Shown piece by piece: positions 47,503-59,871 of a DNA stretch of 64,000 nt. Each line of letters starts with the position of its first letter. Position 1 is the first letter of the stretch. The notes below the pieces were generated by a model. It did not search any database. It was given only the letters and a program-made list of their open reading frames with translations, and had not been told where the DNA came from. A program made the translations under genes and the position numbers. Source of the DNA: an uncultured virus (IMG/VR IMGVR_UViG_3300001589_005208) (Duplodnaviria; Heunggongvirae; Uroviricota; Caudoviricetes); IMG/VR virus record IMGVR_UViG_3300001589_005208. One strand, 5' to 3'.

Positions 47503-48830
47503 TGATTTCAATATCGAGATTACAAAACGATATTGAAATACATGATTGCACTAACGAACGTATCTACAGTAAAGATGAGCTAACTTGTCTTGCTGGAGGA
47601 TATCAGTGTTTCTTTGAGAGTCAAAAACTTAAAAGAGGCGATCGTATTTCATTGTGTCTGCAAGAAGACATACATCATTTAGCAGTAGTGTTTGCTTCTA
47701 TTGACTACGGACTTGTTCCTGTTATTAGCGGCGATCACTACATTGATGACGAGTACTGTGCAAGGAGCAATATTAAAATTGTTTTAACTCGTGGAATACA
47801 ACCTGTAATTGTAGAAACTGTTAATGTTCCTCATATTGAATTAGATGGCAATATTAAACCATCAAAACTTTATCGTGTTAACCACAATGATATTATACTA
47901 GAATCGTTTACTAGTGGTACAACAGGGCATTCTAAAACAGTAAAACATACACACGAAAGTATTACTTGTGCTTCAAACGATAGTATCAAGCACTACTGGA
48001 AAGAAGCAAAAGTAAGTTGGTTTTATCATAATATTGTACACTTAGGTGTTAGTACTGTGTATTTCTTTCCTGCGTTATTTTCTAGTAAAAAGGTCGTTTT
48101 GCCTCAGTTATGGGACACATATGACGTTGATACATTTAATAAACACAAGCCTGATACAATGCTATTGTTTCCGTCAAATTACGAGCAGTATGAAAATTTA
48201 AGCAAGTTAGATTTAAGTCATGTTAAGTATGTACTTACTGGCGGCTCAACGATTCCAAAAACATTTTGTGAAAAACTAATTAAACAAGGTGTTAGTGACG
48301 TTGTTGTAATATACGGGCTAACAGAATGTTTGCCTCCTATTATGCACAAGTTTATAAACAAACAAAATATTGCTGACTACAATCAACAAGATATGGGCGT
48401 AAACTGTGATGATACTGCCGAGTATAAAATTGATAGGCACGGTGAATTAGTGATTGTTAAAAGTAAACATTTAGCAACCCAAATCAATGATTCTAATGTG
48501 GATACATTAAATACAGGTGACCGTGTAAACACGGTTGGAAACAATTATTATTTTGAAAAACGTAATAAAGATTTTATAAGGATTAACGGAGAGTTAGTTA
48601 ATCCACAACAACTTGTTGACGAAAGTCAAGCAACAAAACTTGTGTTGTTTGGTACTTCTCAGACACATGTTGTAGTCTGTGTGAATGATGATTCAGTGAA
48701 TACTGATAGTTTGATCCAGAAATTAACAGGCCAGGGTATCAGTTATGATAAACTAATAGTACCCATAGAGCTTAATGTATTAGGAAAACCTGATATAGGA
48801 AAATTAAGGCACAAGTATGTTTCAAATTAA
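47502..48830 (+). CDS. Adenylate-forming (AMP-binding, ANL superfamily) enzyme
   Basis: FTSGTTGHSK (A3), TGGS, YGLTE (A5), NTGD (A7), R.KD.I.INGE.V.P (A8) and N.LGK.D (A10). Confidence 0.85.
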   Translation: MISISRLQNDIEIHDCTNERIYSKDELTCLAGGYQCFFESQKLKRGDRISLCLQEDIHHLAVVFASIDYGLVPVISGDHYIDDEYCARSNIKIVLTRGIQPVIVETVNVPHIELDGNIKPSKLYRVNHNDIILESFTSGTTGHSKTVKHTHESITCASNDSIKHYWKEAKVSWFYHNIVHLGVSTVYFFPALFSSKKVVLPQLWDTYDVDTFNKHKPDTMLLFPSNYEQYENLSKLDLSHVKYVLTGGSTIPKTFCEKLIKQGVSDVVVIYGLTECLPPIMHKFINKQNIADYNQQDMGVNCDDTAEYKIDRHGELVIVKSKHLATQINDSNVDTLNTGDRVNTVGNNYYFEKRNKDFIRINGELVNPQQLVDESQATKLVLFGTSQTHVVVCVNDDSVNTDSLIQKLTGQGISYDKLIVPIELNVLGKPDIGKLRHKYVSN

Positions 48831-49035
48831 AGCTCATCTTAACGAAGCTCGTAAAGGATACTTCCAGCATGGTAAGTTTGCTGTTGTGGCAGGCTTCGAT
48901 CTTATACTCACAGGTATAGTTAGTATTATACATGGTATACTTCCTAACGTTTTACCATTTTATGCAGAGAAAAAGGTTGACTATTACCACAAGAAGGCAT
49001 TACAATTACAGCAGTTAAGAAAACAAAAGAAATGA
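48817..49035 (+). CDS. Small hydrophobic hypothetical protein
   Basis: HL......YFQH..FA ... IIHG.LP pattern; operon position. Confidence 0.6.
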   Translation: MFQIKAHLNEARKGYFQHGKFAVVAGFDLILTGIVSIIHGILPNVLPFYAEKKVDYYHKKALQLQQLRKQKK

Positions 49036-49472
49036 GTTGGACTTACAAGGGTGATCCTATTGAGCAGTTACCAAGTGACATTGAAGGATTTGTTTACTTA
49101 ATAACCAACTTAAAAAGCAACAAAAAATACATTGGCAAAAAATTAGCAAAATTTAAAAAAACAAAACCACCTCTTAAAGGTAAGAAAAACAAAAGACGAA
49201 CCACAGTAGAAAGTGATTGGAGAGAATATTATGGATCTTCAGATCACTTACAGGCAGATGTAGCAGAGCTAGGCAGCAAGAACTTCACACGTGAAATACT
49301 TTATCTTTGTTCAAGTAGGGGCTTAATGAGTTACCTTGAAGCAAAGGAGCAGTTTGAAAGAGAAGTTCTTTTATCAGATGATTACTATAATGGCATTATA
49401 AACGTTCGCGTAGGCAGTAGCAAAATTCTCCACGAAGGCATTCAACAGTTCAAGAACAATCAACAATTATAG
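49032..49472 (+). CDS. Minimal GIY-YIG family nuclease-like protein (Seg-like)
   Basis: GFVYLITN....KYIGKK, ESDWREYYGSS, F.REIL, YLE..EQ and YYN. Confidence 0.8.
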   Translation: MSWTYKGDPIEQLPSDIEGFVYLITNLKSNKKYIGKKLAKFKKTKPPLKGKKNKRRTTVESDWREYYGSSDHLQADVAELGSKNFTREILYLCSSRGLMSYLEAKEQFEREVLLSDDYYNGIINVRVGSSKILHEGIQQFKNNQQL

Positions 49473-49489
49473 TTACAGTACTTAAGGTT

Positions 49490-49850
49490 AGCGGGCCAGT
49501 TTAAATTACCGCTGTGGAAAAAGTTTCCGTATAGGAACACACGCAACATACAGATCAACACACCAGAGTGTGGAAGCCATCAAACAAATTGGGCTCACCG
49601 GTTAGTATAGATTGAATTACTGTCAATCAAAAAACACAATATAGTTTGTAAAAACCCATGGCAACAGGAACGAAGCGTGGGGTAACATAGCAATATGTAT
49701 GTCGACGTAGGTTGGGTAAGGTCAGAGCCCATCAAACTTGTGTATAAAGAATACCTACTTCCAAGTCTCGGCTGGGTAATACTCGCATGAAGTCAAGATT
49801 AGATGGAACCCTTAAACAGGTTCCGTCTGACTGAAACGATCTGCATGAAG
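49490..49850 (+). ncRNA. Candidate large structured non-coding RNA (about 360 nt, pseudoknotted), family unassigned
   Basis: Lies in the longest ORF-free gap (49473-49956). At least eight complementary helices, including two crossing long-range ones, a GCAA tetraloop, and G-U pairs that favour the plus strand. Confidence 0.65.
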
Positions 49851-49852
49851 AC

Positions 49853-49880
49853 TTTAGTTATATAATCATTTAGTTATATA
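49853..49880. repeat. 12-bp direct repeat TTTAGTTATATA x2
   Basis: Copies at 49853-49864 and 49869-49880, followed by an AT-only run. Confidence 0.6.
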
Positions 49881-49897
49881 TTATTAATTAAGAAAAA

Positions 49898-49943
49898 AGC
49901 AATGAGTTTGAAAAACGAAATTGCTGATGAACTTTAGTTCATC
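49898..49943. terminator. Hairpins between convergent transcription units (terminator candidates)
   Basis: AGCAAT/ATTGCT (49898-49925) and GATGAAC-ttta-GTTCATC (49926-49943). Confidence 0.4.
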
Positions 49944-49956
49944 TTATAGTGTGATG

Positions 49957-50145
49957 CTATAGTAATGGCATTCCGCTTTTCTCTGTGTTCTTGATGTTTT
50001 CCGCAACGATATCGTAGACAATCTTCTGCTCTTTCTGATTGAGCATGAATGCCTGGTCCAGATTAATGCCACCACGCATATACCAAACTATCTTAAATAT
50101 ATTTTCTCTAATAGTGTCGGCTTCTGTGTCAAACTGCTTTAGCAT
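49957..50145 (-). CDS. gp51-like / tail-assembly-chaperone second ORF, probably reached by a -1 frameshift
   Basis: WYMRGG motif; the frame is open upstream to the slippery site at 50187-50193; no SD before the ATG. Confidence 0.65.
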   Translation of the reverse strand: MLKQFDTEADTIRENIFKIVWYMRGGINLDQAFMLNQKEQKIVYDIVAENIKNTEKSGMPLL

Positions 50146-50180
50146 CGATTCGATATCTTCGTTGCTAAGACTCAGAAGCC

Positions 50181-51044
50181 TTATGCGAAAAAATTTGAAT
50201 TGTCAAATACTATAGGTGTTTTATACTTTGTGTCACAACCTTCATTTTCGCAAGTTAATTCAAACTCTGCAAAACTGTTATTGATTCTTTCATTATCAAG
50301 ATGTTTTTGAATATTGTCAAACATCTTTCTATCAACTCCATGTACGAACTCATTGATGTGTGTAGGATTTGTTACTTCGGTACCATCAGCAGTAGTAATT
50401 TTATAAATTGTTTTAGCAATTAAGTCAACAGTGTGTACTGTGAGTTTTAAGAACGTATCGTTAAATAAATCTTGTTTTTGCTCATCAGTTGTTGTTTCAT
50501 CATTGACAATTCTCATAATTTTTGCTTCTTCAAATTGTCTTAGATTTTCAGTGTTCAAGTCTTTATATGATAACGGTTTAAATGTAATTGTTAAATCATT
50601 AATTTTTAACGTATTATTGAACACCCATTTGCCACTTTGATCAATTAAGTTTGCTAAGTCAATACCAAACTCATTTTGTGATTGACAAGTAGGGCAAGTA
50701 GCGGTAATATCCATTTGATTACCGTATGTTGCAATACGAATAGCAATTAATATAACATCCATATCTAAACTTGGTATGGACCACGGGTCTTTAATAGAAG
50801 GTACACAACTCTTAATAACTTCAACGGTACTGCTTCCGTTAAGTAGTGCATCTGGAGTTTTAAAGACTAACTCGTCTTTTGCAGTCATTGGAAATACACC
50901 TATCTCGCCATTTTGTGGAAGATCTAAGGCACCATGTGCATAGTAGTTTCCTTTGCTGGGTAGAGATACATATACTTCGGGTTTACGAAAATACCCGGTT
51001 AAGGGATTTTGATCCTGTTTTAAAGGATTCGCGTTTTCATCCAT
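50181..51044 (-). CDS. gp26: Baseplate hub assembly chaperone (gp26-like)
   Basis: LPSKG..Y, PMTAKDE, D.D.ILIAIR.ATYG, CPTC and C....C; ends NFFA; adjacent to the tape measure gene. Confidence 0.7.
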   Translation of the reverse strand: MDENANPLKQDQNPLTGYFRKPEVYVSLPSKGNYYAHGALDLPQNGEIGVFPMTAKDELVFKTPDALLNGSSTVEVIKSCVPSIKDPWSIPSLDMDVILIAIRIATYGNQMDITATCPTCQSQNEFGIDLANLIDQSGKWVFNNTLKINDLTITFKPLSYKDLNTENLRQFEEAKIMRIVNDETTTDEQKQDLFNDTFLKLTVHTVDLIAKTIYKITTADGTEVTNPTHINEFVHGVDRKMFDNIQKHLDNERINNSFAEFELTCENEGCDTKYKTPIVFDNSNFFA

Positions 51045-59331: not shown

Positions 59332-59398
59332 TAAATATACTTGTAGATGCATAAGCATTTACTTATGGGGCACCAACCCCGTATTACATAGAACGTAA
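59332..59398 (+). promoter_or_regulatory. Late promoter (TAAATA) followed by a structured 5' leader
   Basis: TAAATA at 59332-59337; hairpins GTAGATGC/GCATTTAC and TATGGGG/CCCCGTA precede the AAGGAG SD. Confidence 0.55.
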
Positions 59399-59412
59399 CT
59401 AAGGAGAAACAA

Positions 59413-59871
59413 ATGGGACGTCCACTAAACAAGAGACTTTTTACAGGTGCAGTTGCAGGTGCTACTGCTGGTAAGAGCGAAATTAAAGTAAACTTTCACA
59501 ATGGTACTGCTGTGGTTGAAGGTACAATTATTAAGCAAAAAGGTTCAAAGAAATTTGTATGTGCTGAAACAGGTACTGCTGATACAACACACACTTGCAC
59601 ACTAACAACTGGTAAATTATCATCTGCTCTAGCAGCCGGTGAAATGTCAATTTCAGTTGACGGTAGCGACAGTGAAACTTATGGCGTAAGTAAAATTACT
59701 GCTCGTAAAATAACAGCCGCACAACCAAGTGCAACAGGTTCAAATGCACTAAATGGTTTATCATTAAAGTGGGATTTTGCAGCCGCATCATCAGGTAAAG
59801 TACAACTTGAAGAAGCAGGTGACGATGACGTTGCTAACACAGATGATGACGACTTTACAGAAGACGCTTAA
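59413..59871 (+). CDS. Virion structural protein (head-associated candidate)
   Basis: MGRPLNKR start and IIKQKGSKKF; directly after gp23 with its own promoter and terminator. Confidence 0.65.
   Translation: MGRPLNKRLFTGAVAGATAGKSEIKVNFHNGTAVVEGTIIKQKGSKKFVCAETGTADTTHTCTLTTGKLSSALAAGEMSISVDGSDSETYGVSKITARKITAAQPSATGSNALNGLSLKWDFAAASSGKVQLEEAGDDDVANTDDDDFTEDA

Follow-up and report, generated by a model that had tools for sequence, protein, structure and literature searches.

A multi-pseudoknot RNA with an exact twin repeat lies beside a minimal GIY-YIG nuclease gene and is a candidate replication initiator in T4-like phages and small siphoviruses

Results

The nuclease gene and its neighborhood

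The sequence analyzed here (the window) is a 64,000-nt stretch of DNA from an uncultured virus, which gene content and profile searches place within a large T4-like phage. Its nearest record (G001) is a 43-kb fragment, and the largest relative (G009) spans 331,570 bp at 93% completeness. Reading toward the region of interest on the + strand, the window encodes a late sigma factor, gp47- and gp46-like nuclease subunits, a histone-H1-like protein, an AMP-binding enzyme, a DUF6356 protein (PF19883 by Pfam, 48817..49035), and a GIY-YIG protein, the gene for which is followed by a structured RNA. To the right of the RNA, two convergent baseplate genes on the − strand (a 62-aa ORF plus a T4 baseplate hub gene; PF12322, phrog_150; 49957..51044) form the boundary of the locus, and beyond them lie portal, protease, and major capsid genes. 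The histone-H1-like (PF07432, 47320-47502) and AMP-binding enzyme (PF00501, 47502-48830) genes are situated between gp46 and the nuclease gene. A TAAATA motif on the + strand (48508..48513), which resembles the consensus of a T4-type late promoter, is a possible start of a DUF6356-nuclease-RNA transcript. Metatranscriptome contigs X4 (48612-49728) and X8 (48663-49581) both lie downstream of this motif, a contig that spans several genes being weak evidence for a single transcript rather than a demonstration of one. DUF6356 is not kept beside the nuclease in relatives, where other neighbors are found. Elsewhere in the window, Rfam identified a freshwater-2 RNA motif (RF02980, 54.4 bits, 59345-59415) after the major capsid gene; beyond this, the scan returned two chance matches at the locus.

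The GIY-YIG gene (49032..49472, + strand) encodes a minimal SegE-type nuclease of 146 aa, as judged from PF19835, phrog_447, and a fold match. PF19835 (SegE_GIY-YIG) covers residues 3-123 with an E-value of 4e-36 and 124.3 bits against the Pfam cut-off of 25. The original prediction described the protein as essentially a GIY-YIG catalytic domain (with GFVY, YIG, YLE, and YYN motifs) that carries a Lys/Arg-rich insert and lacks an appended DNA-recognition domain, and this description is borne out throughout. The insert (KFKKTKPPLKGKKNKRRT; residues 40-60, 49149..49211, + strand) is predicted to form a beta-hairpin, and the lack of an appended DNA-binding domain can be read from the predicted model, which comprises a single GIY-YIG domain, the insert hairpin, and one C-terminal helix (residues 131-144) as its last element. 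The model has a pLDDT of 93.7 when built from 91 aligned sequences and 46 when built without an alignment. Its fold matches the I-TevI catalytic domain (Z 8.1, rmsd 2.8, 83 aligned), UvrC (5.6), and T4 EndoII (5.2); a Foldseek search with the model had no match at E 0.001, and sequence searches of the PDB with the nuclease likewise matched nothing. Given that these matches include T4 EndoII, a stand-alone enzyme with a chain of 134 residues, the idea that a minimal GIY-YIG protein needs an RNA is a weak one.

The GIY-YIG fold is accompanied by its catalytic Tyr, Tyr, Glu, and Asn (Y22, Y33, E103, and N120), and these four residues, together with G35 and K36, are invariant in 167 sequences of the RNA-linked family as well as in 12 RNA-less ones. 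Since the catalytic residues are invariant in both sets, the nuclease is probably an active enzyme. The usual GIY-YIG Arg position is Asp in this family, and the invariant K36 may substitute for it. The basic insert averages 23 aa and 9.8 K/R in the 12 RNA-less proteins and 25.4 aa and 10.6 K/R in 164 others; it is family-wide and therefore no mark of RNA linkage. Indeed, RNA-linked and RNA-less proteins differ at only three positions, none of which is in the active site. Relatives of the nuclease occur in 453 phage records, mostly cyanophages, and the protein itself is an unremarkable representative of an established family. The corresponding phrog_447 is labelled 'NAD synthetase' in PHROGs and in many phage records, yet it is a GIY-YIG nuclease.

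A structured RNA that is visible by comparison

The non-coding RNA downstream of the nuclease gene extends from ~49475 to 49852 on the + strand (about 380 nt) and has no Rfam match. It had been proposed that a structured region follows the nuclease stop on the same strand, separated from it by about 18 nt without a terminator. The strand is correct and no terminator-like site, including any U-tract terminator, is present within 48700-50300, but the gap is much shorter, as the first pairing strand (49475-49480) begins ~3 nt after the stop. In the relatives L007 and L073, the stop codon is even located inside the 5' end of the RNA. Folding the sequence by itself gave nothing significant on either strand, the fold of the RNA being no better than those of shuffled sequences (z -1.13, with 14 of 100 shuffles as good). 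One pairing taken from the single-sequence fold, 49590-49596 with 49725-49731, was rejected due to its absence from the alignment. A blastn search with the RNA against 50,697 phage records likewise had no match.

The evidence for structure comes from homologues. We know of 55 distinct members of the RNA class found in the window, 34 of which were aligned and scored against a hand-built structure of 73 pairs. Among these 34 homologues, 96.6% of the cells were paired, compared with 31-40% in slid controls, and both sides of a pair had changed in a compensatory manner in 34 of the 73 pairs, compared with 18.6 +/- 2.1 in shuffles (none of 500 shuffles reached 34); since the structure was derived from the same 34 sequences, it is favored over its controls in both comparisons. 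One-sided changes go to G-U on the + strand. Three crossing helices have compensatory changes of their own. The first is a 5' pseudoknot in which the 5' end (49475-49480) pairs with a loop (49618-49623), with both-side changes in 4/6 pairs and 96.6% of cells paired. The other two belong to a pseudoknotted core within 49644..49758, namely the helix 49644-49648/49733-49737 (both-side changes in 5/5 pairs) and a bulged helix, 49702-49706/49721-49726 (3/5). Two more core helices, 49707-49711/49754-49758 and 49713-49716/49728-49731, have both-side changes in 2/5 and 2/4 pairs, respectively. RNAalifold further predicts a closing helix (49485-49489/49838-49842) that includes a G-U pair, although covariation does not prove it because the 34 sequences contain zero compensatory changes there. 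Finally, folding and the alignment both support a terminal hairpin (49801..49828), in which the changes are mostly one-sided, to G-U. From these comparisons, the RNA downstream of the nuclease gene is a real structured element, and comparison is the only way in which it becomes visible.

An exact twin repeat at the closure of the fold

The terminal hairpin is flanked by two copies of the heptamer GCATGAA on the + strand. Box 1 (49785..49791) follows an invariant ACTC and was delimited by its position and by column covariation, while box 2 (49843..49849) is a direct repeat of it that follows an invariant ATCT, starts directly after the closing helix, and likely marks the 3' end of the RNA. The length of the repeat, 7 nt, is close to that of the hybrid formed during transcription. 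In a test whose only anchors were the flanks, the hairpin, and a downstream motif, and from which 3 cores without an anchor were set aside, the first six letters of the two boxes were identical in 123/123 cores (shuffle mean 55, maximum 67) and the seventh was identical in 119/123, whereas the eighth was at chance. Pattern scans that left both boxes free gave the same six-letter identity in 102/102 distinct cores (shuffle mean 46). Box diversity is understated in these sets, since the scans that supplied many of the loci limited the letters allowed in the box. The boxes of other RNA classes include AGGTAAT, TCGTGAT, GGTGAAG, AGCGAAAC, and AGCACATA, some of which are imperfect repeats. In alignment A1, box 2 is the strongest covariation partner of the variable columns of box 1, which covary with no column complementary to them. 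Pairing of the boxes with each other was considered by hand as the cause of their identity and was rejected, as it leaves positions 1 and 7 unexplained. Because the boxes change in step and have no complementary partner in the RNA, one copy would seem to be read via its complement, and the only complement at hand, judging from the sequences, is the template DNA strand. The guide-like variable segment that had been suggested to occur at an end of the RNA therefore exists as a 7-nt box, except that its matching copy is at the 3' end of the same RNA and not elsewhere.

The twin-box core is present once each in the window, in G009, and in two further genomes (G007 and G008), and it is absent from the Melnitz genome. 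The box heptamer is not depleted elsewhere (8 occurrences vs. 7.0 expected in the window and 27 vs. 28.0 in G009), which together with the single core copy fits an action in cis. Directly behind box 2, a fold with DNA parameters and a motif tally identified three palindromes within 49859..49943 (49859-49880, 49898-49925, and 49926-49943; the middle one has tandem GA mismatches and a loop of 3 nt), which are conserved in that they are also seen in relatives and are candidate single-strand DNA signals.

A twin repeat that is held in such a fold might also serve RNA chemistry, with both box sites docking in turn into one site for cleavage, circularization, or template jumping by a polymerase from box 2 to box 1. 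The four letters before each box are indeed similar and could base-pair with the 5' AGGU. Four of the helices in the fold cross, one helix has a bulged A, an invariant G-U lies beside box 2, and the many unchanging nucleotides packed into the junctions might just as well belong to a catalytic core. Template jumping, as in DRT2-type RNAs, likewise calls for direct repeats that vary in concert. Against this, models of group I and group II introns, RNase P, and small ribozymes did not match the RNA even at E up to 5, and the order of its helices does not map onto the P3-P7 core. No joint of box 2 to box 1 was present in the contigs of four metatranscriptomes (contigs drop rare forms), no tandem box-to-box units were seen by eye among the fetched loci, and the 33 ORFs of G007 include no reverse transcriptase match. 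Thus, we consider a ribozyme or template role unlikely, if still worth keeping in mind.

RNA-library contigs from four studies cover the locus and its neighboring genes. Among these, contig X3 (49155-49852) ends 3 nt after box 2, a weak hint from one study as to the 3' end. This end, which occurs without a U-tract terminator, would also suit a device in which box 2 is driven off the template by box 1, which terminates the transcript and releases a stable RNA to act in trans, such as upon a host or phage protein, with no role in replication. The 5' pseudoknot and the closing helix would then shield both ends of the RNA. Such an end-defining device leaves unexplained both the downstream palindromes and the exchange of the RNA for a polymerase-like gene (see below), and the RNA was not more abundant than the neighboring late genes in the four runs, a comparison in which contig depth cannot rank genes by abundance. 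We judge it to be slightly less likely again than an RNA with catalytic or template function.

RNA classes and Polynucleobacter-1

The RNA of the window is one of several classes that have the 3' core in common and differ in their 5' parts. One class starts with the Rfam motif Polynucleobacter-1 (RF01718), which scored 78-108 bits in 10/20 scanned loci, where it lies directly behind the nuclease gene and precedes the twin-box core. The Polynucleobacter-1 model is 141 nt long and ends before the core and the twin box; as it forms only the 5' part of one class, it corresponds to approximately one third of a larger RNA. The RNA of the window itself did not match RF01718 above the gathering threshold. 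Polynucleobacter-1 is tabled as a possible cis-regulator in Weinberg et al. 2010 (PMC2864571). A literature search, in which coverage of subscription journals was thin, found no account of the whole element.

The nuclease gene is tightly linked to the RNA but separable from it

The original prediction held that the protein and the RNA form a two-part module. As neighbors, the two are indeed strongly associated: 130 RNA loci were recovered with flanks, and among the 111 with 1,100 nt of upstream sequence, the nuclease gene is upstream of the RNA in 105, downstream in 2, and absent within 1.5 kb in 4. The nuclease is visible in 5 of the remaining 19 loci, which have shorter flanks. This adjacency is far more frequent than a dispensable neighbor requires. 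Three of the four nuclease-less loci are fragments of large phages (9-13% complete) that had no match over the cut-off. The large-phage fragments L152, L198, and L202 carry the RNA and palindromes among lysozyme-like and clpP-like genes, with no nuclease nearby. Starting instead from the nuclease, a loose detector called the RNA in 77/96 distinct loci of the gp46/baseplate context with sufficient room (18 loci were too short), some of these calls being spurious; the detector made calls in 4/494 control tiles, which included the true site, and also missed RNAs. Among its 19 negatives, 13 show twin boxes by other scans and 6 remain without assignment. In the nrdAB context, the RNA was called at 0/11 loci with room. 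Melnitz likewise has the nuclease with the same basic insert and no detectable RNA.

The protein tree, made with a quick method, separates the partners further. The RNA-less Melnitz group nests among RNA-linked proteins with a support of 94, and both boxes and RNA classes are scattered over the tree, such that close proteins go with different boxes or folds (L207/L176, L162/L194, and the siphoviruses L135/L271). Since near-identical proteins accompany different boxes and RNA classes, the protein does not seem to read the box. The core profile missed divergent classes: in L279-L317, L042-L046, L270, L271, and L274, the RNA lies on the opposite strand or belongs to a different class, and the tree label 'none' is accordingly wrong for these loci and for L028-L034. 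In one clade, the nuclease gene is inverted, facing away from the RNA in a head-to-head arrangement, which indicates that co-transcription is not needed. In a lineage of small siphoviruses, both the gene and the RNA are retained with their order reversed, and this holds for three RNA types. The border of the nuclease gene is also where one RNA class is exchanged for another.

This last feature, together with the ends of contigs, could be taken to indicate a packaging start or genome end, or else a selfish homing unit whose nuclease carries the adjacent RNA cassette from phage to phage. Among L001-L080, 17/80 contigs end ≤600 nt downstream of the nuclease gene, compared with 1/80 that ends ≤600 nt upstream, and nuclease genes at borders of exchange have been described in phages (PMC10055350). 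However, the contig ends can be accounted for just as well by assemblies that break in a highly conserved stretch as by physical ends, the gene is single-copy, strongly conserved, and without the DNA-binding modules of homing enzymes, and the RNA persists where there is no nuclease. We therefore regard packaging or homing as very improbable.

Small siphoviruses and the contents of the RNA slot

The RNA is also found in much smaller genomes. G007 (31,125 bp, complete; L256, L257) encodes head, tail, terminase, and methylase genes, and its 33 ORFs had no match to a polymerase, primase, helicase, initiator, sigma factor, or reverse transcriptase. Here, the order is RNA, palindromes, and then nuclease. 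TAAATA motifs in G007 are mostly situated before genes on the coding strand, including one 70 nt upstream of the RNA. A late sigma factor was found in 0/2 siphoviruses vs. 3/3 large phages. Siphovirus relatives were then collected via their terminase (80 kept of 596). Nine loci, several of them redundant, have both RNA and nuclease, while the RNA occurs without the nuclease in L413, L415, L434, L443, L458, and L462. With positive controls working, the nuclease was detected in 0/5 of the genomes G021-G025, of which the near-complete 29-kb siphoviruses G021 (complete) and G025 (98% complete) clearly carry the RNA. G022 has a weak RNA match, G023 has another element before the same palindromes, and none was detected in G024. 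This large siphovirus-like group of ~30 kb (G007, G008, and G021-G027), which has no recognized replication genes or late sigma factor and yet bears TAAATA motifs in front of genes, is possibly a group of satellites of large T4-like phages.

These distributions bear upon whether the RNA guides or scaffolds the nuclease. In that case, the protein would bind the 3' core and box 1 would be a 7-nt guide to the DNA of box 2, where a nick would set off either packaging or recombination-dependent replication; a siphovirus that lacks the gene would borrow the protein from a co-infecting large phage. The 105/111 loci with an upstream gene and the 2 with a downstream one are as expected from this, as are the invariant catalytic residues, the freely variable, guide-like box, and the swapped-order siphoviruses that keep both partners across three RNA types. 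The siphoviruses also lack a late sigma factor (0/2 vs. 3/3), so borrowing from a large phage is possible. On the other hand, the RNA is present without the gene in G021, G025, and weakly G022, as well as in L413, L434, L443, and L462, a close relative of the gene lacks the RNA in Melnitz-type phages nested among the RNA-linked proteins (support 94), the three positions that differ between the groups are outside of the active site, and RNA folds swap under near-identical proteins. A guided nuclease is thus a long shot, which we retain because satellites could borrow the protein. It would amount to a self-addressing RNA that folds as it is transcribed, invades its own template by means of a reprogrammable 7-nt box, and recruits a GIY-YIG enzyme through its 3' core to nick there, in very large, widespread T4-like phages and in 30-kb satellites that hijack it with or without the nuclease gene, and in this form it would be just as much of a long shot. 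Of the proposed module, then, the neighborhood and the strong linkage stand, whereas an obligate pairing does not, because the RNA occurs alone in G021 and G025 and the nuclease occurs alone in Melnitz and in nrdAB-linked loci. The nuclease is a frequent but dispensable neighbor of the RNA, tightly linked and yet separable.

In related siphoviruses, the position of the RNA is occupied by the RNA, by other structured elements, or by a protein of ~360 aa. L468 and L478 share the same upstream gene and a small hairpin, after which the slot of L468 contains a 362-aa gene and that of L478 a related RNA whose repeat is imperfect. The slot protein (L468:1640-2728, L447:7134-8192) belongs to a family with 589 representatives and has invariant R131, D158, and H331-D332 in 10 sequences. 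It had no Pfam, PHROG, or PDB match, and its feature-score lead to DNA_pol_A is only 0.75. TV-Pol and related superfamily-A primase-polymerases have a beta-hairpin Arg, two palm Asp, and an RxxxK in the fingers (PMC2579912); the Arg, Asp, and His-Asp of the slot protein are similar to this superfamily-A core, whereas a clean RxxxK is not established. Based upon these residues, it is a candidate primase-polymerase. It was found in 1/10 genomes searched and is absent from all five with the RNA; RNA profiles conversely matched 0/12 loci bearing the protein, nine of which have flanks of only 2.5 kb. In L447, the protein is encoded on the opposite strand and not precisely in the slot, and G024 has neither the RNA nor the protein. 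Other structured elements occupy the same siphovirus slot in L270, L410:1700-2140, L493:1323-1890, L455:7100-7650, L440, and L469; some slot-filling elements are situated before the same palindromes, and at least two types are unlike the window class. A second, small hairpin RNA-like element follows a TAAATA just upstream of the slot in L256:10978-10850 (− strand), L410, L455, L468, and L478.

Discussion

Our preferred interpretation is that the RNA is a single-copy, cis-acting initiator of phage DNA replication, which operates in the manner of ColE1 RNA II and has the nuclease as an optional accessory. We liken it to RNA II because of its single-copy fold, the box at the closure of this fold that matches its own template, the palindromes, its retention in small phages, and its exchange for a polymerase-like gene. 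The RNA would fold while being made and present box 1, which, having the same sequence as box 2, could hybridize at box 2 to the DNA template strand. Such an exchange of strands might either anchor a persistent R-loop or release the polymerase at box 2, leaving the 3' end of the RNA as a primer, while the displaced strand would expose the palindromes as loading signals for the lagging-strand machinery. The nuclease would most likely be a structure-selective DNA nuclease of the gp46/gp47 recombination-replication block, perhaps acting upon the R-loop, and it would neither read the box nor be needed in cis. Two observations from the siphoviruses support an origin in particular: G007 carries the RNA and palindromes with no replication gene match among its 33 ORFs, and the slot of related siphoviruses holds the RNA, other structured elements, or the ~360-aa protein. 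GC skew in the window follows transcription and turns near 43.5 kb rather than at the RNA, and the skews of G009, G007, and G008 have no clear turn at the RNA. As skew gives no support, priming is inferred, and the polymerase call is a lead, we hold the probability of RNA-primed initiation at about 0.5.

If this interpretation is true, then abundant aquatic T4-like phages and seemingly dependent siphoviruses would start replication by means of a structured RNA with a short, exact self-repeat, the orphan Polynucleobacter-1 motif would gain a function, and an initiator consisting only of RNA would be exchangeable for a primase-like protein. It would also indicate an undescribed helper-satellite pair. 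The exchange at the siphovirus slot and the clade with an inverted nuclease gene are new in the present analysis.

Several known systems invite comparison. The modular homing endonucleases I-TevI and Seg have a separate C-terminal DNA-binding module. The 146-aa protein has neither this nor the linker of I-TevI, and it carries a basic beta-hairpin. In P-SSM2, the gene behind the PF19835 member abuts its stop, so there is no room for an RNA. OMEGA systems (IscB with omegaRNA/HEARO, TnpB) also place a small nuclease beside a structured RNA, a short variable part of which matches DNA, just as the nuclease of the window adjoins a structured RNA with a short variable box, and the self-targeting covariation of the twin box resembles the donor loop of the IS110 bridge RNA. 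The present locus differs from both in its nuclease fold and in having neither transposon ends nor multiple copies; HEARO had no match in an Rfam scan of the RNA, and the RNA and protein do not co-vary, each occurring alone, unlike the obligate co-occurrence expected of an OMEGA-like system. Odn of ICP1 is another phage nuclease with a link to replication origins, in this case in the conflict of a helper with its satellite PLE, which swaps replication modules (PMC8263062). Odn targets the satellite and has a domain devoted to origin binding, whereas the GIY-YIG protein has no such domain and is carried by some small phages themselves.

The closest parallel is with ColE1. Masukata and Tomizawa reportedly found in 1990 that an upstream segment of RNA II pairs with the template further downstream, and hairpin signals are said to lie behind that origin, which has a primosome assembly site downstream. 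The RNA described here is not a member of the ColE1 RNA II family and has no sequence similarity to it. Its anchor is a variable 7-nt exact repeat rather than a G-rich tract and its hosts are a T4-like phage family and small siphoviruses; Rfam models of RNA II and RNA I had no match in this region of the window. In ColE1, RNA II provides an R-loop primer downstream of a G-rich stretch (PMC6317783). The likeness is that of a large folded RNA which would act upon its own locus, where it would similarly leave an R-loop to serve as the primer.
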